Positions 2,266 through 54,269 of a stretch of DNA of 64,000 nucleotides are shown here, in pieces (the first letter of the stretch is position 1; every line of letters starts with the position of its first letter). Under the pieces are notes generated by a model. It saw only the letters and a list, made by a program, of their open reading frames with translations, had not been told where the DNA came from and did not search any database. A program made the translations under genes and the position numbers. The DNA is from Candidatus Iainarchaeum sp. (GTDB lineage: Archaea > Iainarchaeota > Iainarchaeia > Iainarchaeales > UBA10191): positions 1 through 64,000 of the forward strand of contig JAUSFL010000035.1 of NCBI GenBank assembly GCA_030649735.1, written 5' to 3'.

Positions 2266-3024
2266 TTAAAAAAGTATTCTGCCGGCTTTTTGCATGATTG
2301 GGCTGATTATTTCGTCGCCTTTCATTGTCCTGATGCGGACTTCTTCAATTCCTTGGATTTGCCTTGCAGTCTTCAAGAGCTTTTCATAGCTTGGTGAAGG
2401 GCAGCCTTCAACTTCTTTTCCCAGAGTTCCTTCGCTTCCAATGAATTGCTGCAGCACAAAGCGTTTTGCGCCTTTAAGCTGGCGTGAAAGCTCGAGCACG
2501 TCGCGGTGAGAGTGAAGAGCCGGAACAAAAGTCATCCTGAACTCGTAGTCATTGCAGTAGAATTTTGTGGCCTGAATGCTTCTCCACACTTCTTCAATGT
2601 TAACGCGCTTTCCAGTGATTTTAAAGTAGGAGTAATCGTTGATTTGGCTTTTCAAGTCTATTGAAACAAAGTCCACAAGGCCTTTTCCGAGGATTTCTTC
2701 AAGCAAGACGCTGTCAGAGCCGTTAGTGTCAAGCTTTACTTCAAAGCCTTCGGCTTTGAGCACTTGCAAGAATTCGACAAGCTTTTTTCCCTGCAGTAAT
2801 GGCTCTCCGCCAGAAATCACTACGGAATTCACTTCAGGAAAGCCGTTGAACAATTCCTGCAGTATTTTTTCTTGCGGGATTGTTTCCAAGTTTTCAGAAT
2901 CGGCAATTATTGAATGCGCGTAGCAGTACTTGCATTCGAAATTGCAGCCTGGAGCGTACACAACTGAACTTTTTCTTCCAGGCCATGCCGTAAGGCTTTG
3001 CGGAAAGAATGCCGCTATCTGCAT
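2266..3024 (-). CDS. nrdG: Anaerobic RNR activating radical SAM protein (second paralog)
   Basis: PGCNFECKYC, ISGGEPL, KLDTNGS, YEFRMT, LQQF; probable start MQIAAFF. Confidence 0.85.
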   Translation of the reverse strand: MQIAAFFPQSLTAWPGRKSSVVYAPGCNFECKYCYAHSIIADSENLETIPQEKILQELFNGFPEVNSVVISGGEPLLQGKKLVEFLQVLKAEGFEVKLDTNGSDSVLLEEILGKGLVDFVSIDLKSQINDYSYFKITGKRVNIEEVWRSIQATKFYCNDYEFRMTFVPALHSHRDVLELSRQLKGAKRFVLQQFIGSEGTLGKEVEGCPSPSYEKLLKTARQIQGIEEVRIRTMKGDEIISPIMQKAGRILF

Positions 3025-3101
3025 AGTAAAACCAACTCTCAAGCAATTAGAATGCAGGTTCTTTTTAAAAATCATTTCTTTGGGTGGTTTATTTTTAAAT
3101 G

Positions 3102-3803
3102 CTAGTCCAAATTCCTGAATTCGACTTTTTTGACTTTTTTTTCAAGGACTTTCTTGAATTTTTCAAAATCCGCCAGGGAAAATTTTCTCGCATTTCTCAA
3201 ACTGCTGTCAATTAAGGTGTCGACTGGAACAAACTGCTGCAAATAATAAATTTTTGCGCCTTCCAAAAGTTCTGCGATTTTTTCAAAGTCTTCTTCCTTG
3301 TGGAATTCAGGCAATAGCGTGGTGCGGAATTCATATTCAATTTTTGAGTTTTTCAAGAGCTCGATGCTTTTTCTGATTTTGTCCAGTGGCGCAAGAACTC
3401 CGCAAATCCTTTCATAATTTTCCAAAGGCCCCTTAATGTCCATTGCAACATAATCAACCAGTCTTTTTTCAATCAATTCCTCAAGCATTTCGGGGTTTGT
3501 TCCATTAGTGTCCAGTTTTACCAAATAACCTATGGCTTTCACTTTTTCCAAAAATTCGGGCAGGTCTTTCTGCAGTGTTGGCTCGCCGCCCGAGACAACA
3601 ACGCCTTCAAGCACTTTTTTCCTTAAAGCCAGAAAATCAAGGTATTCTTGCACTGGAACTTCGCCTAATTCTTCATCGTCATTCACAATGCCTGAATTAT
3701 AGCAGAACCCGCACTTGAAATTGCAGCCTGGAGTGAAGGCAGTGCTTGCAAGCCTGTCCGGAAAGTCAAGTAGTGTTGTTTTTTGAATGCCTTTGATTCG
3801 CAT
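3102..3803 (-). CDS. nrdG: Anaerobic ribonucleoside-triphosphate reductase activating protein
   Basis: TTLLDFP, GCNFKCGFCYN, SGGEPTLQ, KLDTNGT, AMDIK, YEFRTT. Confidence 0.93.
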   Translation of the reverse strand: MRIKGIQKTTLLDFPDRLASTAFTPGCNFKCGFCYNSGIVNDDEELGEVPVQEYLDFLALRKKVLEGVVVSGGEPTLQKDLPEFLEKVKAIGYLVKLDTNGTNPEMLEELIEKRLVDYVAMDIKGPLENYERICGVLAPLDKIRKSIELLKNSKIEYEFRTTLLPEFHKEEDFEKIAELLEGAKIYYLQQFVPVDTLIDSSLRNARKFSLADFEKFKKVLEKKVKKVEFRNLD

Positions 3804-4157: not shown

Positions 4158-4841
4158 TTACTTGAATCTTCTGACAAACCTGTAAGGGCATTCGCAAGGC
4201 GCCTTGTGGCACACGTGGCAGTTGTTGAAGAAAAGCTTTGAAAGCTCTCCTGCAACGTCAACATTCAATGAATTGAAAACGCTCATTACTGTCGAGTAAT
4301 AGTCTGCTGCTTCCTTTACCGCGATTTCCAAATCGCAGTACCTTCTTTCTCCCCTGAAAGTCCAGACTGCTTCTGAAAGCTCTCCGAGCTCTTCAGCCAA
4401 ATGCAGGCCCGCGATTTCCAAAGTCCTTGCGCTTGCAGGATATATTTTGTTGAACATTTCCTGGAATTCGCGCATTGTTTTTGGTCTTTTGGATTCGTCA
4501 ATGATGACTTTCTTTCGCCCTTGCACTGCGTTTTTCTTGCACTCGCAAGGGGCTTTTCCGCAGTAAGAGCAAAGGTAAGGGAATCTTTGCCAGACTGCGT
4601 CTTCAACGTCAATGTGAAGCCTTGACATTGTGGAGCTGAACCAGCTTAATGAAATCAAGGCGTTTACTTTGGTTTTTTCCGCGTTTCCTTGGCGTATTCC
4701 TTTGATGCAGCGCATTGCGTGCCTTTGAATGTTGTTGAGCATTTCTGAAAGCTCGTAATCGCGGTCATTGGGCAGAAAATAGACTTCTTTCACGAATTCT
4801 TGAAAGTCATGAATGTTTCCGTTCTCTTGAAAACTTGCCAT
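4158..4841 (-). CDS. Tandem-domain MazG-like NTP pyrophosphatase with two CxxC-PCxC Zn-finger motifs (paralog B)
   Basis: HLAEELGELSEA...KEAADY MazG motif; CSYCGKAPCEC and CHVCHKAPCEC. Confidence 0.75.
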   Translation of the reverse strand: MASFQENGNIHDFQEFVKEVYFLPNDRDYELSEMLNNIQRHAMRCIKGIRQGNAEKTKVNALISLSWFSSTMSRLHIDVEDAVWQRFPYLCSYCGKAPCECKKNAVQGRKKVIIDESKRPKTMREFQEMFNKIYPASARTLEIAGLHLAEELGELSEAVWTFRGERRYCDLEIAVKEAADYYSTVMSVFNSLNVDVAGELSKLFFNNCHVCHKAPCECPYRFVRRFK

Positions 4842-4901
4842 TAAGACAGCCTCTTGCATTCTTTTTTTAAACGCTCTTAAAATCCCTGAGTTTCTCCAAT
4901 T

Positions 4902-5585
4902 TCATTTGAATCTTAAAACAAGCCTGTAATCGCATTCGCAAGGCGATTTATGGCATGCAAAACAGTTATTGTCGAAGTTTTTTGCCAATTCTTTAGCCAG
5001 GTCAGTATTTAATGAGTTGAATATTCCAAAGACTGTTGACAGGTAATCTGCGGTTTCTTTCATGATTGTTTCAAAATCGCTGTTGCGCCTTTCTCCCCTG
5101 AAAGCAAGGATTGCGTCAGAGAGCTCGCCAAATTCTTCAGCCAAGTGAATGCCTGCAATTTCAAGGCTTCTTGAAGCCGGGGGGTAAATTCTTTTGAACA
5201 TTTCCTGGAATTCATGCATTGTTTTAGGCCTTTTGCTTTCAATCACGTCAACTTTTCTCCTTCCGGGAATTGATTCTGCCTTGCAAGTGCATGAAATGTT
5301 TCCGCAGTAAGAGCACAAGTAAGGAAACCTTTGCCAAAGCGCGTCTTCAATGTCAATGTGAAGCCTTGTCGCCATTGAAGTGTACCAGCTTAAAGAGCGC
5401 AAAAAATTAAGCTTGGCTTTCTCAGGATTTCCCTGGCGTATTCCCTTAATCCCTAAAGTGACAAACCTGTGGACATTCGCGAGCATTTCAGCCAATTCAA
5501 ACCCGCGGTCGTTCGGGAGGTCGTAGACTTCGTTGATGAATTGCTGGAATTCTTTAATGCTTCCGTTTTCTGGAAAATTAGCCAT
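4902..5585 (-). CDS. Tandem-domain MazG-like NTP pyrophosphatase with two Zn-finger motifs (paralog A)
   Basis: HLAEEFGELSDA...KETADY; CSYCGNISCTC and CFACHKSPCEC; collinear with 4158..4841. Confidence 0.75.
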   Translation of the reverse strand: MANFPENGSIKEFQQFINEVYDLPNDRGFELAEMLANVHRFVTLGIKGIRQGNPEKAKLNFLRSLSWYTSMATRLHIDIEDALWQRFPYLCSYCGNISCTCKAESIPGRRKVDVIESKRPKTMHEFQEMFKRIYPPASRSLEIAGIHLAEEFGELSDAILAFRGERRNSDFETIMKETADYLSTVFGIFNSLNTDLAKELAKNFDNNCFACHKSPCECDYRLVLRFK

Positions 5586-5669
5586 TACAATTGCCTATTT
5601 AATTGTTTTTAAAAAGCCAAATATTAGTTTAAAAGGAATTTTTGGAAAGAAGAATGAAAGGCAGAATTT

Positions 5670-5816
5670 TCATTCTACCTTGTATGTTTTCCTGTCGCAG
5701 AATTCTTCTTTTTTTCCCGCATTCCAGTTCTGGATTGGCCTATAGTATCCGACAACTCGGGAATACACTTCTGTCTTTTCTCCGCATTCTATATTTCCTT
5801 CTTGTTCTTGTGTCAT
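5670..5816 (-). CDS. nrdD: Stand-alone glycyl-radical domain of class III RNR (48 aa; not in ORF track)
   Basis: Translated by hand: MTQEQEGNIECGEKTEVYSRVVGYYRPIQNWNAGKKEEFCDRKTYKVE*; SD GGAGGT 8 nt before the ATG. Confidence 0.92.
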   Translation of the reverse strand: MTQEQEGNIECGEKTEVYSRVVGYYRPIQNWNAGKKEEFCDRKTYKVE

Positions 5817-5817
5817 A

Positions 5818-7860
5818 TTATATTACCTCCAAGGCTCTCTCTTTAATCATATTGGTTTTGACGACTACAGGGCATGTTTCATGATTTCCCGCAACATAAC
5901 CGTGCGTTTTGCAAATGCTGAATGTAGGCGTTATTGTAAAGTACGGCAAGTGATAGTTTTCCGCAATTTTTCTGACGAGTTTTTTGCAGGCTGTCGGACT
6001 TGAAATTTTTTCCCCAATAAAGCCGTGCAGCACTGTTCCGCCAGTGTACTTGCATTGCAGTTCGTCCTGGTGGTCTAATGCTTCAAAAATGTCGTCAGTG
6101 TAATCAACAGGCAAGTGCGAGGAATTCGTGTAGTATGGCGCGTTTTTTCCGGCCTGCAAAATGCCTGAAAGGTTTTTTTGGTCATGCCTTGCAAACCTGT
6201 ATGACGTTCCTTCTCCAGGAGTTGCTTCCAAATTGTACATGTGGCCTGTTTCTGCCTGGAATTCCTGCAGTCTTTCGCGCATGAAGTCCAAAACCCTGAG
6301 TGCAAAGGCCTTTCCTTCAGGAGTCTGGATTCCGCTGTCAGGCCCTAAAAAATTCAGGCAAGCCTCATGCATTCCATTCAATCCAATTGTTGCAAAGTGA
6401 TTGTTCAAAGTACCCAAGTATCTTCGCGTGTAAGGCAATAATCCTTGGTCCATGTTTTTTTGAACTTCTTTCCTTTTGATTTCAAGGCTTTCTTTTGCCA
6501 GAATCATCAGCCTTTCAAGCCTTGCAAAGAATTCTTTCTCGCTTTTTCCCTTGCTCAAGAAAGCCAAGCGAGGCATGTTTATTGTAACGACTCCAACGCT
6601 TCCAGTTGACTCTCCGGCCCCAAACAATCCGCCAGTCTTGCTTTTGAGCTTTCTCAGTTCATTCAAGTCAAGCTGCAGCCTGCAGCACATTGAGCGCACG
6701 TCATGCGGTTTTAATGAACTGTTGATGAAGTTTTGAAAGTATGGAATTCCGTACTTTGCGGTCATTTCAAAAAGCAATTCCGCATTTTCTGAATCCCAAT
6801 TAAAGTCTTTGGTTAAGTTGTAGGTTGGGATTGGGAATGAAAAAGTCCTTCCGTCAGCGTCTCCCTTAATCATCATGTCCAGGAAAGCCCTATTTATCAA
6901 GTCCATTTCATCCTGGAAGTCGCTGTAAGTCTGGTCTTGCAATTTTCCTTTAATGATTACTGGCATGTCTTTCATGTCTTCTGGAACAGTCCAGTCCAAT
7001 GTAATGTTTGTGAAAGGCGGCTGATTGCCCCAGCGGGAAGTCTGGTTGACGCTGTAAACAAACTCTTGCAGGCCTTGCTTTACTTCCTCGTAAGACAATC
7101 CTTCCTTCCAAATGAACGGGGCAAGATAAGTGTCAAAGCTTGAGATTGCCTGCGCTCCAGCCCATTCATTCTGCAAAGTTCCAAAAAAATTCACTAGCTG
7201 TCCTACTACTGCATGCATGTGTCCTGCCGGGCCTGCAGCAATTCTTCCAGAAACTCCCCTGAATCCTTCAGTGAGCAATTGCCTGAAAGACCATCCTGCA
7301 CAATAGGCCGCGAAAACCCCGTGGCTTAAGTCATGAATGTGCAAGTCCGCGCTCCTGTGCGCGTCAGAAATTTCTTTTGGGTAAATGTTATTCAAAGTGT
7401 ATTCTGCGACAATGTTTCCTGAAATGTGCGCCTGCAGGCCGGTCATTGAGTAAGTTTCGTTCGCGTTTTCTTTCACGCGCCAGTCAGTTCCAATCAAGTA
7501 GCCGTCAATTATTCCCTCGGCTTTTCTCAAAAAGCTTTTCGTGTCCCTTAACTGCCTTCTTTGCTCCCTGTAAAGAATGAAAGTCTTTGCAGTGTCTGCG
7601 TATCCTTCCTTGATTAGGATTCTTTCAACAATGTCCTGGATTTCTTCAACAGTCGGGTTGGTGTTTCCAAATCTTTCCTTCAACTGCTGGACTATTTTGT
7701 CAGTCAATTCTTCAGCAATCCAACGGTCTTTTCCACCGACTGCCTGTGCTGCGGCAAAAATTGCATTGGTGACTTTTTCACGGTCAAACCTTGTTGTACG
7801 GCCGTCTCTTTTAATCACGCAGTCAAAATACTTTTTTGCCTCTTGCATCTCTCTCAACAC
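5818..7860 (-). CDS. nrdD: Class III anaerobic ribonucleoside-triphosphate reductase, catalytic subunit with ATP-cone, lacking the glycyl-radical domain
   Basis: VIKRDG ATP cone, HIHDL, YCAGWS, RSMCCRL, EATPGE, YTGGTV, CKTHGY...CP. Confidence 0.95.
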   Translation of the reverse strand: MLREMQEAKKYFDCVIKRDGRTTRFDREKVTNAIFAAAQAVGGKDRWIAEELTDKIVQQLKERFGNTNPTVEEIQDIVERILIKEGYADTAKTFILYREQRRQLRDTKSFLRKAEGIIDGYLIGTDWRVKENANETYSMTGLQAHISGNIVAEYTLNNIYPKEISDAHRSADLHIHDLSHGVFAAYCAGWSFRQLLTEGFRGVSGRIAAGPAGHMHAVVGQLVNFFGTLQNEWAGAQAISSFDTYLAPFIWKEGLSYEEVKQGLQEFVYSVNQTSRWGNQPPFTNITLDWTVPEDMKDMPVIIKGKLQDQTYSDFQDEMDLINRAFLDMMIKGDADGRTFSFPIPTYNLTKDFNWDSENAELLFEMTAKYGIPYFQNFINSSLKPHDVRSMCCRLQLDLNELRKLKSKTGGLFGAGESTGSVGVVTINMPRLAFLSKGKSEKEFFARLERLMILAKESLEIKRKEVQKNMDQGLLPYTRRYLGTLNNHFATIGLNGMHEACLNFLGPDSGIQTPEGKAFALRVLDFMRERLQEFQAETGHMYNLEATPGEGTSYRFARHDQKNLSGILQAGKNAPYYTNSSHLPVDYTDDIFEALDHQDELQCKYTGGTVLHGFIGEKISSPTACKKLVRKIAENYHLPYFTITPTFSICKTHGYVAGNHETCPVVVKTNMIKERALEVI

Positions 7861-8065: not shown

Positions 8066-8350
8066 TTAAAATTTTATTGAAAATTCTTCCATCTGGTTTT
8101 TCTTTGAAGAAAACTTTTTTTCAATCCTTTCCACTCTCGCAAACCCGGCATCCTGCTCTAAAATTTCCAGCAGTGAAAGCAATTCTTTCTTTTCTCCAAA
8201 AGCCTCTAATTCCACAGTCCCGTCCCCGCAATTCTTGACCCATCCGGCAAGTCCCAGTCTTCGTGCGTTTTGCCTTACAAACGCCCTGAATCCAACGCCT
8301 TGCACTCTTCCAAAAGCCTTTGCGAAAACGCAGTTTTCATTATTGCTCAA
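8066..8350 (-). CDS. acyP: Acylphosphatase
   Basis: GRVQGVGFR and GWVKN motifs. Confidence 0.93.
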   Translation of the reverse strand: MSNNENCVFAKAFGRVQGVGFRAFVRQNARRLGLAGWVKNCGDGTVELEAFGEKKELLSLLEILEQDAGFARVERIEKKFSSKKNQMEEFSIKF

Positions 8351-8796
8351 GCTTTCGCCTTCAATTCCTTCAATTTTTCCTCAAGCTCTTCAAGCGAGCT
8401 TACTATTTCAACGCAAGAGTTTGAAATCATCAGGTTCAATTGCTTTTTTTGGTCAAAAATCCTGCTGTCATTCAAAAACCCTATTATTGGAATTCCTTTA
8501 GAATACAAATAACCAATCTCAAAGGCAGTTCCTGAATCAACATCCAGCCCATCAAGCAATGCAACGCAAGCACTGCAGGAATCCATTGCCTTCAAGTCTT
8601 TTTCAAAAAAAGGCCTTGGGGGACAGTCTCTTTTGAAGACTCCGGCGTTCTTGTGCGGCAAATAAGCAATAAAGCCCCCTCCTTCTTCTTCTCCTCCTCT
8701 TCCGGCCTTTTCGCAAACAGCGCCGATTTCTTCAATGTGCTTTCTATGGTATTCAGTGAACAATGGCCCGGCTACATAAACGATTGGCTTTTCCAT
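8347..8796 (-). CDS. Nucleoside 2-deoxyribosyltransferase family protein
   Basis: VYVAGPLF, YLPH, D...DSGTAFEIG, LNLM motifs. Confidence 0.85.
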   Translation of the reverse strand: MEKPIVYVAGPLFTEYHRKHIEEIGAVCEKAGRGGEEEGGGFIAYLPHKNAGVFKRDCPPRPFFEKDLKAMDSCSACVALLDGLDVDSGTAFEIGYLYSKGIPIIGFLNDSRIFDQKKQLNLMISNSCVEIVSSLEELEEKLKELKAKA

Positions 8797-8851
8797 AACT
8801 TGTCTTGTACCTGTTTGTTTTTTTAATTCTTTCCAGCCTTCAATAATGCAC

Positions 8852-9439
8852 ATGCTTAAAGAGATCAGGATTCACGGCCGGGGAGGCCAAGGCGTTGTCA
8901 CAAGCAGCGAGCTTTTGGCAATTGCGGCCTTTAATGACGGAAAGCAATCCCAGGCTTTTCCTAATTTTGGGGTTGAAAGAAGCGGCGCGCCGATTTCAGC
9001 ATTCACCAGAATAAGCAATGAAAAAATTAATTTGCGCCAGCAAATTTACGAGCCTGATTATGTGATTGTTTTAGACTCAAGCCTGCTTTCAACTGTCGAA
9101 GTCACCAAAGGGCTGAAAAACAACGGCCTTTTGATAATAAATTCTGACAAAAAGCCAGAAGAGCTCGGCTTGAAAACAAATGCCAGAATGGTTTCTTTTG
9201 ATGTTTCAAAAAAAGCAATTGAAATTTTGGGAAAGCCATTGGTTAATGTTGCAGTGCTTGGGGCTTTTGCAGCGCTGACAAAAGAAATAACGCTTCCTTC
9301 ATTGCTTAATGCAATAGACCAAGAGTTTGAAAGCAAGAAAGAAATTGCTGAAAAGAACAAAAAGCTTGCGGAAATACTTTACAAAGAAAACATTGCGGTC
9401 GAGAAAGAAAAATCAAGGGCTGGCAAAAATGGCAAATGA
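8852..9439 (+). CDS. porC: Pyruvate/2-oxoacid:ferredoxin oxidoreductase gamma subunit
   Basis: EIRIHGRGGQGVVT, FGVERSGAP. Confidence 0.93.
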   Translation: MLKEIRIHGRGGQGVVTSSELLAIAAFNDGKQSQAFPNFGVERSGAPISAFTRISNEKINLRQQIYEPDYVIVLDSSLLSTVEVTKGLKNNGLLIINSDKKPEELGLKTNARMVSFDVSKKAIEILGKPLVNVAVLGAFAALTKEITLPSLLNAIDQEFESKKEIAEKNKKLAEILYKENIAVEKEKSRAGKNGK

Positions 9440-37640: not shown

Positions 37641-39209
37641 TTAGTTTTCGGCAAGCTTGCCGAATTTCCAAAAGTCAAATTCTGAAGGAAAGCAGGAATT
37701 TTTTCCGGAAAATCCTTCACTGCGCTGTTTTTTCTCCAAAACAAGGCTTTTCATGATTTCCTCTTTTTCACTGGCGCTTTTTCCATTAAGGTCTTTTCCA
37801 AATTCCTTGAAAATAATGCAATTGCTTGCCTGGCCTGTGGGATTGACCCTGATTTTCCTGCATTTTTTCGGGTCGCATTCAAAGTCTATCGAGTATTGCG
37901 GCAAAATTCCAAAAACCACTTTGTTTTCCATTATTTCAAAATACTCGCTTTTTGGGTTGTCGCCCTTGAAAAAAACAGGCCTGATTTGCCCGAATTCTTT
38001 CCTGACTGCCTCGACTGCCTTTCTGACTGGCACGTATTCTTTCTTGACGAATTGCGCGTCTTTTTCAAAACCGCCTGGAATTAGCTCCAAAAACCGTACG
38101 GCAATCTTGCAGTTTCTATTGCGTTCAGACAATTCCTTTATGAAATTAATTATTTTTGGAATTTCCTGCAAGTTTTGCTTTGAGAGCACAAAATGAATTT
38201 TGACTGTCTCAAAGAATTCTGCGGCCTTTTCTATTGACTGCAAAACTTGCGGCAGGAAATCAAAGCCGGTGATTTGCGCAAATTTTTCCCTGTCTAAAGT
38301 GTCCAGGCTTATGTTGGCGCGGCTGATTCCGCAGTTTTGCAATGCTTCAGCATTTCTAAAAAGCGTTGTCCCGTTTGTTGAAATGCACTGTTCTGAAAAC
38401 CCGAGCTCTTTTGCTTTTTTTGTGAGCTGTAAAAAACCTTGATTTATTGTGGGCTCGCCGCCAGTCCATCTGACTCGCTTGATTCCGGAATTTTTTGCAG
38501 CCTGCAGTATTTCAATGATTTCTTCATTGCTTATTTTTGGCATTCTTTCCTGGTTGTTTTCCCTCTTGCAGTAGTTGCAGTTCAAATTGCATTCCCTTAA
38601 GGAAATTTCAAGCATGAAATCATTGATTTTTCCGATTTCTTCAACGACTTTCTTGAATTCTTCATTCTTTGTCCCATCAAGCTCAAAGCCCGCTTTTTGC
38701 TTTAATGGCTCAATGTGCAAGTCGTGCATTGGACGCACGTGCTCTTCAAGCCGTTTGCGCACTTTCTCTTGCGAAATATTCCTTTCAATGCAGTCTCTTT
38801 TAATGCGCCTTGCAAATCTTTCAGCCTCGGGCGCGTTGACAAAAAACTTCAAGTCCATTTCCTTGTTCAATTCATTGTCGTGCAGTGCGAGAATTCCCTC
38901 AAAAATTATTATCTCGGCGGAATGGATCTTTTCAAAGCCAGTCCTTCCGTTCTCGTACTCGTAAATTGGGGCCCTAAAATCCCTGCTGTTTTTCAGGCTG
39001 GCAATGCAGTTTTTGATTAATTCCCAGTCAAAGGATTCCGGGCAGTCAAAATTCTTTTCGCCATTGAATTCTGGAATTTCAGAATGGCTTTTGTAAAACC
39101 TGTCCTGGCTTAAAATCAGCGCGTTCTTTCCAAGATTCTCGGCGGCCTTTCTCGCAATTGTTGTTTTTCCAGAAGCAGAACCCCCGGCAATCCCAACAAC
39201 CAGCACCAT
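37641..39209 (-). CDS. Fusion of uridine kinase (N-terminal) and MoaA-like radical SAM/twitch domain (C-terminal)
   Basis: GIAGGSASGKT, QDRFY, NFDCP, EGIL, RRIKRD, VRPMH; then CNLNCNYC, RWTGGEP, TNG, NISLDTL, C..C...R......C. Confidence 0.88.
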   Translation of the reverse strand: MVLVVGIAGGSASGKTTIARKAAENLGKNALILSQDRFYKSHSEIPEFNGEKNFDCPESFDWELIKNCIASLKNSRDFRAPIYEYENGRTGFEKIHSAEIIIFEGILALHDNELNKEMDLKFFVNAPEAERFARRIKRDCIERNISQEKVRKRLEEHVRPMHDLHIEPLKQKAGFELDGTKNEEFKKVVEEIGKINDFMLEISLRECNLNCNYCKRENNQERMPKISNEEIIEILQAAKNSGIKRVRWTGGEPTINQGFLQLTKKAKELGFSEQCISTNGTTLFRNAEALQNCGISRANISLDTLDREKFAQITGFDFLPQVLQSIEKAAEFFETVKIHFVLSKQNLQEIPKIINFIKELSERNRNCKIAVRFLELIPGGFEKDAQFVKKEYVPVRKAVEAVRKEFGQIRPVFFKGDNPKSEYFEIMENKVVFGILPQYSIDFECDPKKCRKIRVNPTGQASNCIIFKEFGKDLNGKSASEKEEIMKSLVLEKKQRSEGFSGKNSCFPSEFDFWKFGKLAEN

Positions 39210-39230
39210 CAAACCACCTTGGCAGTTTTC

Positions 39231-48434: not shown

Positions 48435-49001
48435 ATGGCTTTTGAAGCGAAGAATTTTGAAAATCTTTTAGGACTGAAAGGATTCAGCGATACTTTGTTG
48501 AAAAACCATTTTACCCTATACCAAGGCTATGTGGCGAATGTAAACAAGTTGTTGGATTTATTGGATACTAAAGAACCTGGAACTTTGGAATATTCTGAAT
48601 TGCAGAGGCGTTTTGCTTGGGAATGGAATGGAATGAGGCTGCACGAGTTATATTTTGAGAATTTGACAAAAAAGCAGAATCAACTTAATGACGGCAAGTT
48701 AATGAAAGAGATTGAGCGAATTTACGGCAGTTTTGAAGCTTGGGAGAAAAACTTTGCGGCTGTGGGATCCATGCGCGGAATTGGATGGGTTGTTTTGTAT
48801 TATGATGAGGAATCTAAAGAATTATTCAACATTTGGGTCAATGAGCACGACACAGGGCATTTGGCTGGCTGCAATCCATTGCTTGTAATGGATGTTTTCG
48901 AGCACGCTTTCATGATTGATTACGGATTGAAGCGCGCTGATTACATTGCGGCTTTCTTTAATGCCATTGATTGGCTTGCTGTCGAAAAAAGAATGGTTTA
49001 A
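48435..49001 (+). CDS. sod: Fe/Mn superoxide dismutase (ChrC-like)
   Basis: H..LY.GY, NG..LHELYF, DVFEHA metal ligands. Confidence 0.92.
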   Translation: MAFEAKNFENLLGLKGFSDTLLKNHFTLYQGYVANVNKLLDLLDTKEPGTLEYSELQRRFAWEWNGMRLHELYFENLTKKQNQLNDGKLMKEIERIYGSFEAWEKNFAAVGSMRGIGWVVLYYDEESKELFNIWVNEHDTGHLAGCNPLLVMDVFEHAFMIDYGLKRADYIAAFFNAIDWLAVEKRMV

Positions 49002-52376: not shown

Positions 52377-53351
52377 TCAAAATGAAGGAGTGAAGCAGCA
52401 ATAGCCGATTTTATCGCAGGCGTTTTTCATCCTTGCCCAGTTCTTTGCCTGAATTGCCTGCATTGCCATTGGGTAAAGAATATTGTCTTCCTTGTAAATG
52501 TGGTCTGGCAGCTCTTTTGCAATGTAGTCCGCGTTTTTTTTCACTTTTTTGACGAATTCCTTAAACTTGATTTTTTTGCCGTTAATTGCAAGATTGAAAA
52601 GCGCTTTTTTCCGTGCCTTTAATTCCTCGTGCTCTTCGCGCATTATTTCCGGCGGTTCGTTGATTCCTGCTTTTTCCATTTCCGGGAACAGGACTTCTTC
52701 TTCCCTTTGGTGGTGCTTGTCTGCTTCAACCAAGTGCTCTGAAACGTGCTTTAAGATCTCGATTTCTTTTCCGGCTTGCTCAAAGCCTTTTGCTTTTTCC
52801 AATTTTTTAACTGCCTTTTTCATTTTTTCAACAAAGTCCAGGATCATTTTGTGCTCTTCCATTAAAGTGTGCAGCAAGTGCCCTGGCTTTAGATTTAGCG
52901 CCTTGCCTTCAAGGCTTTCTTTCATTATTTCCAAATGCACGTCGCAAAGCTTTCTCATGTCTTTTCTTGAGACTCCTTCCTGGATTATTTCTTGTTCTAT
53001 TAGCCCAAGCTCTGCTGGCGAAAGGCCTTTTAGGAGCTTTTTTCCCTTTTCTTTTATTTTTTTGGCGTTCTTTCCGGAATGCAGTTCTTTAAGCAGTTCT
53101 TTCACCTGCTGTCTTTTGCTGTCTTGTGTTTTTTTTATTTTCACAATCCAGTCTTTAGGGCCTTGCTTTTCATAATTCCATTCAAAGCTTCCTTTCATTT
53201 CAGCGTCAAACTGGTAATACAGCGGTTTTGGGTCGTGGTCGTTGATTATGCGCAGGATCTGCCCGCTCTTGAGGCTGTTCCAGTCCTCAAATATTTTTGA
53301 ATGCCTTTCAAAATGGGGCATTTTCCTCAAGTCCAATTTAATTCCATTCAT
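52377..53351 (-). CDS. DUF2249 + DUF438 + hemerythrin-domain protein
   Basis: LDLR...NDHDPKPL; LCDVH; EH, HHQREEEVLFP, HIYKEDNILYP. Confidence 0.82.
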   Translation of the reverse strand: MNGIKLDLRKMPHFERHSKIFEDWNSLKSGQILRIINDHDPKPLYYQFDAEMKGSFEWNYEKQGPKDWIVKIKKTQDSKRQQVKELLKELHSGKNAKKIKEKGKKLLKGLSPAELGLIEQEIIQEGVSRKDMRKLCDVHLEIMKESLEGKALNLKPGHLLHTLMEEHKMILDFVEKMKKAVKKLEKAKGFEQAGKEIEILKHVSEHLVEADKHHQREEEVLFPEMEKAGINEPPEIMREEHEELKARKKALFNLAINGKKIKFKEFVKKVKKNADYIAKELPDHIYKEDNILYPMAMQAIQAKNWARMKNACDKIGYCCFTPSF

Positions 53352-53359
53352 GAGTTCAC

Positions 53360-53659
53360 CTATCCTGAGTGTTTTTTGCATATTCTGCAATTTTTTTGAG
53401 TGTGTTTTTCTATCAAGCGCAGCAAAGGCCGCATTGTTTGCTTGTTGAGGAAGTATATCCTGCTTTTGCCTTTTTTTTCCGCCTTTACAAACCCGCATTC
53501 TTCAAGCGATAGAAGCGCGTGCGAAACCTTGCTTCTCTCCTGCCTTAGCTTTCCCGCAAGCTCGCTGACGCTTAATGGGCTTTCATCAAGAGTTTCAATA
53601 ATGTCGCTTTTCAGCCGCGTGGCGAGGGTTTCGAAAAACAGGTAACAGCCGGAGTTCAC
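53360..53659 (-). CDS. ArsR-family HTH transcriptional regulator
   Basis: FETLA..., SVSELA, SKVSHAL..L...GFV; Cys residues at both termini. Confidence 0.85.
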   Translation of the reverse strand: MNSGCYLFFETLATRLKSDIIETLDESPLSVSELAGKLRQERSKVSHALLSLEECGFVKAEKKGKSRIYFLNKQTMRPLLRLIEKHTQKNCRICKKHSG

Positions 53660-53676
53660 GTGAATTATAATTCACG
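53659..53676. promoter_or_regulatory. Perfect 18-bp palindromic operator
   Basis: CGTGAATTATAATTCACG between the divergent ArsR and hemerythrin/FTR1 genes. Confidence 0.75.
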
Positions 53677-53705
53677 CATAAGAATTTAAACCTTGCGCTG
53701 GTTAA

Positions 53706-54269
53706 GTGTTTGCAAGAGGCGGTTTATTGGAAAAACCAACGGCAATTCTTTCAAACGAGCATAAAAACATCATGAAAGTGATTCAGGCCTTAAATAACGA
53801 GTGCGAAAGCATTGAAGGCGGCGGCAAAATAGACCGGGCTTTTTTTGAAAAGGCGATTGATTTCATAAGAAACTATGCCGACAGGTTCCATCACGCCAAA
53901 GAAGAGGACATTCTATTCAAAGAAGTTTGCAAGGACAGCGTTGAAATGCACTGCAATCCAACAGAGCAAATGCTTTTCGAGCATGATGCCGGAAGGAATT
54001 TCGTCAAAGGAATGGAAGAAGGCCTGCAAAAAAACGATAAAGGAAAAGTTCTGGAGAATGCTCGCGGTTATGCGCAGCTTTTGCAGGAGCACATTTACAA
54101 AGAGGACAACATATTCTATCCAATGGCTGACCAGGCATTAAGCGGCAAAGTGCAAAAAGCAATGATTGAAAGATTCAAGCTGGCGGAAAAGAAAAGATTC
54201 GCCAAAGGCGTTAAAGAAAAGTATTTGGGCATTGCCAAAGAGTTTGAAAAGCGTTCCGGGGGAAGCTAA
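53706..54269 (+). CDS. Hemerythrin-domain protein
   Basis: EH, YAD.FHH.KEE..LF, EH, EHIYKEDNIFYP. Confidence 0.88.
   Translation: MFARGGLLEKPTAILSNEHKNIMKVIQALNNECESIEGGGKIDRAFFEKAIDFIRNYADRFHHAKEEDILFKEVCKDSVEMHCNPTEQMLFEHDAGRNFVKGMEEGLQKNDKGKVLENARGYAQLLQEHIYKEDNIFYPMADQALSGKVQKAMIERFKLAEKKRFAKGVKEKYLGIAKEFEKRSGGS

Follow-up and report, generated by a model that had tools for sequence, protein, structure and literature searches.

Can an nrdD gene that ends before its glycyl radical loop still give rise to a working class III ribonucleotide reductase (RNR)? This question is raised by a locus in the window, by which we mean the whole 64,000-nt stretch of Candidatus Iainarchaeum DNA analysed here. 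O2 kills glycyl-radical enzymes by cleavage of the backbone at the radical glycine, and to our knowledge the only repair of an O2-cut glycyl-radical enzyme is provided by GrcA/YfiD, for pyruvate formate-lyase (PFL). We find it very probable that two translationally coupled genes of the window specify a working class III (glycyl-radical) RNR, and we consider, with less confidence, that the smaller of the two products might be exchangeable.

The radical loop lies on a separate gene

The large chain of NrdD is encoded by a minus-strand ORF (7860..5818) of 680 aa when counted from its GTG; the ATG at 7848 is the likelier start, giving 676 aa, and this is also the form in the gene caller's record of the chain (P0103). 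The C-terminus reads ...SICKTHGYVAGNHETCP followed by VVVKTNMIKERALEVI and then by a TAA stop (5820-5818), so that nrdD ends 16 residues past the third zinc ligand. The RVxGY radical loop is absent from this polypeptide and is present instead on the 48-aa product of an ORF that runs from the ATG at 5816 to 5670 on the same strand (MTQEQEGNIECGEKTEVYSRVVGYYRPIQNWNAGKKEEFCDRKTYKVE). The spacing between the two genes is 1 nt with a frame offset of +1, and the small frame is closed by a TAA (5825-5823) two codons ahead of its own ATG. A sequence-only reading of this DNA had described an NrdD that stops after CKTH...CP and a 16-aa tail without RVxGY, followed by a small ORF with its own GGAGGT Shine-Dalgarno sequence and an RVVGY loop. 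Both parts of that description can be read directly in the sequence, and the split at nrdD is confirmed. The features of the two genes are the following.

5818..7860, minus strand: nrdD large chain, with ATP-cone, barrel and the first three zinc ligands (PF03477, PF13597, NF006126)
7555..7818, minus strand: ATP-cone domain, residues 15-102 of the 680-aa ORF (PF03477, E 2e-24)
6679..6690, minus strand: finger-loop motif MCCR, residues 391-394, of the double-cysteine type with methionine (class as in section 2.5 of PMC9669993)
5902..5913, minus strand: first zinc knuckle C650-K-T-H653 (C-x-x-H), with Cys and His invariant in 62 homologues
5869..5874, minus strand: third zinc ligand, C663-P664; the chain break lies inside this second knuckle
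5821..5868, minus strand: 16-residue tail VVVKTNMIKERALEVI, the final codons of which overlap the ribosome-binding site of the small gene
5825..5830, minus strand: Shine-Dalgarno sequence GGAGGT, 8 nt ahead of the ATG of the small gene, with a likewise placed element in 12 of 12 split loci
5670..5816, minus strand: small chain, 48 aa, with the strand TEVY, RVVGY and WNAGK..EF..R
5784-5786, minus strand: C11 of the small chain, the putative fourth zinc ligand
5748-5750, minus strand: Gly23 of the small chain, in the radical loop RVVGY

Both chains belong to the NrdD family

The profile matches of both chains to NrdD are far beyond chance. In Pfam NRDD (PF13597), the large chain covers positions 1-526 of 562 (E 5e-173, 577 bits, cut-off 26) and the small chain positions 525-562 (E 1.3e-11, 44 bits, cut-off 26); the large chain also scored 1036 bits with NF006126 (cut-off 548) and 487 bits with TIGR02487 (cut-off 326). 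Searches of the small protein against Pfam and NCBIfam matched only NrdD families and detected no homology to the C-terminal domain of PFL, and PHROGs has no family that covers the small protein, an unlinked paralogue or a MazG-like protein encoded nearby. Among 29 stand-alone small proteins, 13 residues are invariant, including EVYSR, GY, WN and GK.

The large chain contains MCCR (391-394) and YCAGW, which provide the finger-loop cysteine(s) and the conserved strand-A cysteine, and both cysteine positions are invariant across 62 homologues. It also carries TPGE, whose glutamate is a candidate for the diagnostic active-site residue, and the sequence motifs had been taken to suggest the redoxin-dependent type. 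In that form the assignment is not supported: the thioredoxin subtype (NrdD2-like) is defined by a methionine-free double-Cys loop together with the active-site glutamate, and the loop here is SMCCR; according to section 2.5 of PMC9669993, MCCR enzymes with methionine appear equipped for formate or thioredoxin alike.

Distribution of the two-gene layout

A profile of the small protein was searched against 196 genomes of the same order, 107 of which were matched. The 117 matches comprised 14 in frames of at least 592 aa, 102 in frames of 37-102 aa and one in a 202-aa frame that was split on inspection. Only the short form was found in 93 of the 107 matching genomes; for most of the 102 matches a short frame was taken as split, and two of them touch contig ends. 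Direct inspection showed a truncated large gene and, adjacent to it, a small gene at 12 loci and at 5 more. The radical motif is absent from the end of 81 of the 120 closest large-chain homologues, a count in which 8 of the 120 rows were scored by eye. Judged by these frames, the two-gene layout is the rule across the whole order. The genes of the window are archaeal and their nearest named homologues are from 'Candidatus Diapherotrites archaeon', which fits the earlier guess of a DPANN archaeon.

Assembly error and recoding as explanations of the break

The genome is metagenome-assembled in 51 contigs, and one base inserted within the ATA codon preceding the stop would join both frames, as expected if the break were a sequencing or assembly frameshift or if the gene were a decaying pseudogene. 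However, the same junction occurs in a contig from a different study. This contig of 2041 nt covers 5300-6324 and differs there by 31 substitutions and a single indel, which is located behind 5643 in intergenic DNA; its sole change near the junction is synonymous (ATA>ATC at 5821), as is its sole change within the small gene (TTC>TTT at 5700), and the stop and the frame offset are kept. A Logan contig from the run that is probably the source matches the window exactly over 5300-6500 and is not independent. The comparison was made on assembled contigs rather than raw reads, and two further runs were left out, which had poor junction coverage or gave short pieces of low identity. In addition, the small frame has its own Shine-Dalgarno sequence and ATG and is closed two codons upstream, the layout recurs in 93 of 107 genomes of the order, both parts are strongly conserved, and the locus is the sole RNR detected in the genome. 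The frameshift or pseudogene reading is therefore close to refuted and, in our judgement, barely tenable, in line with the earlier argument against a simple frameshift error, to which the varying offsets in relatives can be added.

Programmed +1 frameshifting or stop read-through would produce one fused chain from the two frames, with the GGAGGT before ATA-TAA-T as stimulator. An SD-like element is indeed situated 1 nt ahead of the last sense codon and stop, the second frame is the +1 frame, and a GGAGGT-stimulated +1 shift resembles that of bacterial prfB. In the relatives, however, no single rule fits: over 12 split loci, the distance from stop to start varies between -17 and +58 nt and the frame offsets 0, 1 and 2 are all seen, and the small gene has its own ATG with a Shine-Dalgarno sequence (GGAGG/GAGGTG) at start-codon distance in all 12. 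The varying offsets and the start signals present at every inspected small gene argue against recoding. Moreover, the stop two codons before the small ATG would leave only two or three nt for a shift, and we regard recoding as very improbable. An intein, trans-splicing and an intron were also rejected, as the tails of 16-45 residues lack intein motifs and the small genes have their own start signals.

The genome encodes a single large and a single small gene

The genome contains one nrdD large gene and one small gene, and neither a second small gene nor a full-length NrdD is present in its contigs. No class I or class II RNR domains were detected in this 92.7%-complete genome, although another RNR could be unassembled at this completeness. 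Because a single large gene and a single small gene occur together with no full-length enzyme, the peptide is an obligate subunit here. The gene string continues on the same strand downstream of nrdD, where two NrdG2-type genes also lie.

4902..5585, minus strand: 227-aa Cys-rich protein of MazG-like type, encoded in this gene string (PF03819, E 0.0048, below cut-off)
4158..4859, minus strand: paralogue of the MazG-like gene, 233 aa, with no Pfam match and the likeness judged by eye
3102..3803, minus strand: NrdG-type radical-SAM activase, 233 aa (TIGR02495, 220 bits, cut-off 131)
2266..3075, minus strand: second NrdG-type activase, 269 aa (TIGR02495, 147 bits)

A putative zinc site shared between the chains

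By sequence, three zinc ligands are located on the large chain (C650, H653 and C663) and one on the small chain (C11); the zinc site of Thermotoga maritima NrdD is described as Cys/His/Cys/Cys in PMC4493059. We co-folded the large and small chains with zinc and obtained a score of 0.78 (runs 0.77, 0.81 and 0.78), compared with 0.01 for the best of the controls (n=3). In the calibration, 116 of 157 solved complexes and 2 of 215 mismatched pairs attained this mark; its inputs differed from ours, which were custom alignments and a riding ligand. The runs had at least 92% of contacts in common with a partner pLDDT of at least 75. The tightest predicted contacts connect residues 642-646 of the large chain with 15-18 of the small chain, and C659 (P0103 numbering) with 11-15. 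In the model, the Cys and His of the first knuckle touch the small chain, and the three large-chain ligands and the small-chain ligand are brought together; the finger-loop cysteines are not among the confident contacts. The docking score may reflect memory of solved one-chain NrdD structures (8P23, 4COI/4U3E and 1H78).

Homology and the co-fold both favour the earlier proposal of a Zn site divided between two chains (C-x-x-H...C / C), and the peptide is docked in the complex predicted with Zn. In some relatives (L008, L010 and L017), all four zinc ligands are on the large chain (CPKC, CPIC and CPVC), so the design can do without a zinc site that both chains share.

A proposed two-chain mechanism and the possible exchangeability of the small chain

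The large chain (676/680 residues) comprises the ATP-cone and the ten-stranded barrel, together with the MCCR finger loop and the putative ligands C650/H653/C663; the small chain adds the putative ligand C11, a beta-strand predicted to pair with the last strand of the large chain, and the RVVGY loop. In the mechanism that we propose, this loop would dock into the barrel, with zinc clamping the chains to each other. Either of the NrdG-type activases whose two genes lie downstream would abstract a hydrogen from Gly23 to form the radical, which would move to the finger-loop cysteine, and NTPs would be reduced as in one-chain NrdD. A cut by O2 at Gly23 would hit the 5-kDa peptide and spare the catalytic body, and with the damage confined to the peptide, a fresh one could restore the body to use. 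The 48-residue protein may accordingly be viewed, tentatively and at a little under even chances, as a consumable, exchangeable radical cofactor: the O2-cut peptide would leave, and a fresh, NrdG-activated peptide would re-arm the body.

Exchangeability, proposed earlier by analogy with GrcA, is plausible, and it draws indirect support from relatives with stress-operon paralogues and multi-copy arrays and from lone copies in phages. In family f27, an unlinked extra small gene directly follows a rubrerythrin gene with a Fur-family regulator in 5 of 5 cases, and a peroxiredoxin, MsrB or CDGSH protein adjoins the unlinked genes; copies in such Fur-rubrerythrin operons were found in 5 genomes from two genera. 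Among these 5, G079 has a fused 723-aa NrdD together with an unlinked 49-aa small gene. A Lentisphaeria chromosome has 7 copies of the small gene for its one large gene, and a 206-nt tandem array accounts for three of the copies. The motif was also found at 78 viral loci, in short frames at 57 of these. No NrdD body was detected by tblastn within the ~3 kb fetched on each side of the 57 short frames, a test that recovers 16 of 21 long-frame (likely fused) viral loci and that divergent bodies could escape.

The split could also be a neutral gene fission without benefit, the chains reassembling into an ordinary NrdD and the peptide never being exchanged. Fused relatives (for example P0108, P0107, P0176 and P0207) have inserts of 7 to ~35 residues at exactly the loop between the third and fourth ligands, and because this loop tolerates long inserts, a stop and restart there would be harmless. 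Split genes are a known trait of DPANN archaea. In a tree of 100 catalytic cores (FastTree only; 20 of 120 sequences with <600 or >800 aa dropped), the split/fused state changes 13 times, well-supported branches require at least 10 of these changes, and the state is not the same within close pairs of sisters; such repeated changes would fit a nearly neutral toggle as well as selection. Neutral fission does not, however, account for the unlinked copies that two genera keep in Fur-rubrerythrin operons (5 genomes, including one with a fused NrdD), for the 7 copies in one Lentisphaeria genome, for the 57 lone copies on viral contigs or for the dominance of the split form (93 of 107 genomes), and we consider it possible but rather doubtful.

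Comparison with known systems

Solved chains matched by sequence were those of T. maritima (4COI/4U3E), P. copri (8P23) and phage T4 (1H78), and the radical domain is on one chain in all 5 solved NrdD sequences matched. The enzyme of the window shares with one-chain NrdD the profile family, ATP-cone, barrel, finger-loop cysteines, RVxGY and a neighbouring NrdG, and, by sequence, a putative Cys/His/Cys/Cys zinc ribbon like that of the T. maritima enzyme (PMC4493059). It differs in that its catalytic polypeptide breaks off within the second zinc knuckle, and a separate 48-residue gene product provides the complete radical loop along with the putative fourth ligand. NrdD chemistry would thus be retained in a layout other than the usual single chain.

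Like GrcA/YfiD of E. coli and Y06I of phage T4, the small protein is a stand-alone copy of a glycyl-radical C-terminal domain; relatives have unlinked copies beside oxidative-stress genes, and as in T4 with Y06I (reference list of PMC13450708), phages bear lone small copies. Of such autonomous glycyl-radical cofactors, which serve PFL, PMC8683613 names YfiD and Y06I as the only validated ones. In contrast to GrcA/YfiD (YfiD, 14 kDa), the small protein has 48 aa, is homologous to NrdD rather than PFL and is the sole radical domain in this genome, and so is an obligate subunit rather than a spare; a GrcA-like coexistence with a full-length enzyme is seen in G079 and not here. A further parallel is the class II NrdJa/NrdJb of Pseudomonas aeruginosa, an RNR catalytic subunit split near the C-terminus whose small piece, NrdJb, has a zinc-finger module (section 2.4 of PMC9669993). 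That system belongs to another RNR class with another cofactor, and NrdJb bears a reducing cysteine pair, not a radical. Our literature search, mostly of papers outside subscription journals and of main texts without supplements, found no published split NrdD.

Whether further glycyl-radical enzymes have spare parts has been asked in print (PMC8683613), and a 2026 review lists none for other glycyl-radical enzymes (PMC13450708). If the exchangeable-cofactor reading is true, class III RNR would be the second enzyme with a spare-part system, after pyruvate formate-lyase, and the system would be built into the normal architecture of the enzyme. Relatives would add oxidant-regulated paralogues in Fur-rubrerythrin operons, and phage copies would keep host dNTP synthesis running. 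With the radical on a peptide short enough to be synthesised, NrdG activation, inter-chain radical transfer and subunit exchange would become directly testable. Where nrdD has been called 'truncated', as in many uncultured archaea, bacteria and phages, the enzyme is probably complete, and annotation pipelines should pair such genes with the small gene.

A two-gene class III ribonucleotide reductase

The locus is a genuine, conserved two-gene class III RNR, and its surroundings are as follows.

Features of the nrdD region
8066-8853, minus strand: nucleoside 2-deoxyribosyltransferase and acylphosphatase genes, directly upstream of nrdD
7860..5818, minus strand: nrdD large chain, an ORF of 680 aa from GTG
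5830-5825, minus strand: GGAGGT before the ATG of the small gene
ATG 5816, minus strand: small gene of 48 codons, starting one base beyond the large-gene stop
4158-5585, minus strand: two tandem paralogous proteins of ~230 aa, separating the small nrdD gene from the nrdG genes
2266-3803, minus strand: tandem NrdG2-type activases (220 and 147 bits)

The more likely start of the large chain is ATG 7848, which is preceded by AAGGTG and gives 676 aa, as in the gene caller's record (P0103). This chain contains a PF03477 ATP-cone, matches positions 1-526 of the 562 in the Pfam NRDD profile and scores 1036 bits against NCBIfam NF006126 (cut-off 548). Its C-terminus reads ...SICKTHGYVAGNHETCP-VVVKTNMIKERALEVI-TAA, and RVxGY is absent from the whole 680-aa ORF read through to the TAA. 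The small-gene product corresponds to profile positions 525-562 (E 1.3e-11) and carries C11 (the cysteine that the large chain lacks), a TEVY strand, the RVVGY radical loop with Gly23, and a WNAGK..EF..R terminus; a stop codon closes its frame two codons 5′ of the ATG. Every sequence element listed in the earlier sequence-only reading of this DNA was recovered.

That reading had also argued against a simple frameshift error. We checked the junction in assembled contigs of public runs, not in raw reads. A 14.4-kb contig from the probable source run is identical over 5300-6500 but not independent, and a 2041-nt contig from a run of a different study covers 5300-6324 with 31 substitutions and one indel, the latter behind 5643 in intergenic DNA. 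Just one substitution falls close to the junction (ATA>ATC at 5821) and just one in the small gene (TTC>TTT at 5700); both are synonymous. The stop and the frame offset are kept, which bears out the argument, and the comparative evidence is stronger still.

The break divides the predicted zinc site

Zinc in T. maritima NrdD is bound via CxxxHx6CxxC, in a ribbon that follows the last barrel strand and precedes the radical loop (PMC4493059). The motif of this clade is C-x-x-H...C-P-x-C. Its first three ligands (C, H, C) do not vary across 62 homologues. In fused relatives, with body and radical motif on one chain, the loop from the third to the fourth ligand contains inserts of 7 to about 35 residues. 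Because most breaks fall in this loop, the predicted zinc site is divided 3+1, as at the window locus; at three loci (L008, L010, L017) the break follows CPxC, and all four ligands lie on the large chain.

A co-fold of both chains with zinc, proposed in the sequence-only reading, scored 0.78 (runs 0.77, 0.81 and 0.78) compared with 0.01 for the best of three controls. Of 157 solved complexes used for calibration, 116 attained this mark, as did 2 of 215 mismatched pairs; our run departs from that calibration in its alignments and in the riding zinc. The runs had at least 92% of contacts in common, with a partner pLDDT of at least 75. The tightest predicted contacts join large-chain residues 642-646 to small-chain residues 15-18, and the model sets the third zinc ligand beside C11. 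Because one-chain NrdD structures exist, this pass may mirror likeness to them and is not independent evidence.

The split is conserved within the order

A profile of 29 stand-alone small proteins was searched over 196 genomes of the same order and gave 117 matches in 107 genomes. By open frame, 14 matches were fused (at least 592 aa), 102 measured 37-102 aa (two of the short frames touch contig ends) and one measured 202 aa, which proved split when inspected. The survey of split nrdD that the first reading had suggested thus shows nothing but the short form in 93 of the 107 matching genomes. Among 19 further genomes of the phylum, five matched: three in frames of 802, 702 and 426 aa, and two in short frames (86 and 63 aa). 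Each junction inspected, at 12 split loci and 5 more, consists of a truncated body followed by the small gene.

At these 12 loci, the small gene starts from 17 nt before to 58 nt after the end of the large-gene stop, frame offsets 0, 1 and 2 all occur, and every start has an ATG with a GGAGG/GAGGTG element at start-codon distance. Programmed frameshifting or read-through is therefore very unlikely, as no single rule suits such varied offsets and gaps. The recurring 'EV' near the large-chain ends is the ribosome-binding site read as codons. An intein at the break was likewise rejected, the tails of the large chains being too short. True inteins interrupt nrdD at other places in several relatives: nrdD is about 1000-1100 aa long in genomes G016, G028, G040 and G177 and in proteins P0106, P0117, P0145, P0205 and P0217, most of which contain PF14528/PF14890 intein/homing-endonuclease domains, at two different places in the body.

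Distribution beyond the order

The radical motif is missing from the end of 81 of the 120 best large-chain homologues and present in 39 (8 rows set by eye); split homologues include sequences source-named Candidatus Diapherotrites, Nanoarchaeia and Saganbacteria. A FastTree was built from 100 catalytic cores truncated ahead of the zinc motif, with 20 rows left out for length; on it the split/fused state changes 13 times, and well-supported branches force at least 10 of these changes. Shuffled states averaged 26.1 changes, and 0 of 500 shuffles went down to 13. Such a count implies many events of fission, re-fusion or transfer.

A database search returned 102 small homologues (41-79 aa), several on contigs >100 kb. 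In species-representative genomes, 5 of the 80 loci scanned had short-frame copies; they belong to Lentisphaeria (two loci), Margulisiibacteriota, a Bilamarchaeaceae archaeon and a Spirochaetales genome. In a Spirochaetales MAG (L101), a 193-aa frame has the radical peptide as its N-terminal part, and its C-terminal part, which ends in CPNCP, may be a redoxin-like domain fused to the peptide. The fused homologue P0119 (752 aa) has two consecutive radical modules, ...TEIFSRVVGYYRPVQNWNEGK... then ...SEVFSRVVGYYRPVQNWNKGK..., an arrangement suggestive of fusion with a downstream small gene.

Is the radical peptide exchangeable?

The sequence-only reading proposed a replaceable radical carrier, analogous to GrcA. 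The peptide of this genome is an obligate subunit, for which there is no sign of replacement; relatives, in contrast, offer three observations beyond neutral fission. First, unlinked copies occur: G084, G085 and G086 each have one large gene, an adjoining small gene and an unlinked one, G079 combines a fused NrdD of 723 aa with an unlinked gene of 49 aa, and G081 shows an unlinked gene only. In all five genomes the end of a rubrerythrin gene (PF02915) and the unlinked small gene overlap; a Fur-family regulator (PF01475) lies upstream in G081, G085 and G086, and neighbours include peroxiredoxin (G079), MsrB (G085) and a CDGSH iron-sulfur protein (G079, G084). G108 has two more unlinked copies, by an ArsR-type regulator and an FTR1 permease, one with an internal stop.

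Second, copies multiply. A Lentisphaeria chromosome (L039, G215) carries a single large nrdD, broken into three frame pieces (probably by long-read indel errors), and seven small copies. Three form a tandem array between nrdD and nrdG (L039 2984-3540, period 206 nt, 98% alike), and the other four are dispersed; one small copy lies beside phage-like genes. Third, among the best 80 viral-contig loci (L136-L215), 78 have the motif, 57 of these in short frames; tblastn matched an NrdD body within the locus for none of the 57 short frames versus 16 of the 21 long ones. Stand-alone peptides of the NrdD radical type are common on viral contigs.

Purely neutral fission, which leaves the unlinked, multiple and viral copies unexplained, is a rather doubtful account of the split. 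E. coli GrcA and phage T4 Y06I offer a parallel to these copies, though they serve a different enzyme. An exchangeable radical peptide is a well-motivated and testable, if tentative, hypothesis, not a finding.

According to a 2026 review (PMC13450708, section 5.3), formate lyases are the sole glycyl-radical class with identified spare-part proteins; Andorfer et al. 2021 (PMC8683613) give YfiD and Y06I alone as validated and spare parts for other enzymes as possible. The nearest published split RNR is class II NrdJa/NrdJb (PMC9669993). The literature searched, which lacked most subscription journals, yielded no description of split NrdD; as far as we found, the two-gene layout is a new, unpublished architectural variant of a known enzyme.

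Role in the cell

Because the finger loop of the large chain is SMCCR, and double-cysteine loops with methionine appear equipped for formate or thioredoxin (PMC9669993, section 2.5), the earlier 'redoxin-dependent' assignment is unproven.

The genome measures 1.28 Mb (92.7% complete), a small size that fits a DPANN archaeon, and the genes of the window are archaeal, with products such as a Hef-like helicase-nuclease, NucS, pyruvoyl arginine decarboxylase and XPD. A 523-aa protein (37644-39212, minus strand) combines fused uridine-kinase/PRK and radical-SAM domains with a MoaA-like C-terminal domain. Genes for an Fe/Mn superoxide dismutase and for two proteins with hemerythrin domains (48435-48998, plus strand, and 52380-54266) hint that the organism meets oxygen.

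Near nrdD, the ~230-aa paralogues contain repeated Cys motifs, YLCSYCG...C.C and C..CHK.PCEC. A weak MazG match, below the cut-off (E 0.0048), was obtained for one of them and none for the other. A role in nucleotide house-cleaning, linked to the RNR operon, is possible for both. The gene pair directly upstream of nrdD may be a link to deoxynucleoside salvage.

Two NrdG2-type activase genes lie downstream of the nrdD pair on the same strand. Because the genome has a single nrdD, these two activase genes and no detected class I/II RNR domain (at 92.7% completeness), the two-gene enzyme must work, and it is probably the cell's sole route to dNTPs.
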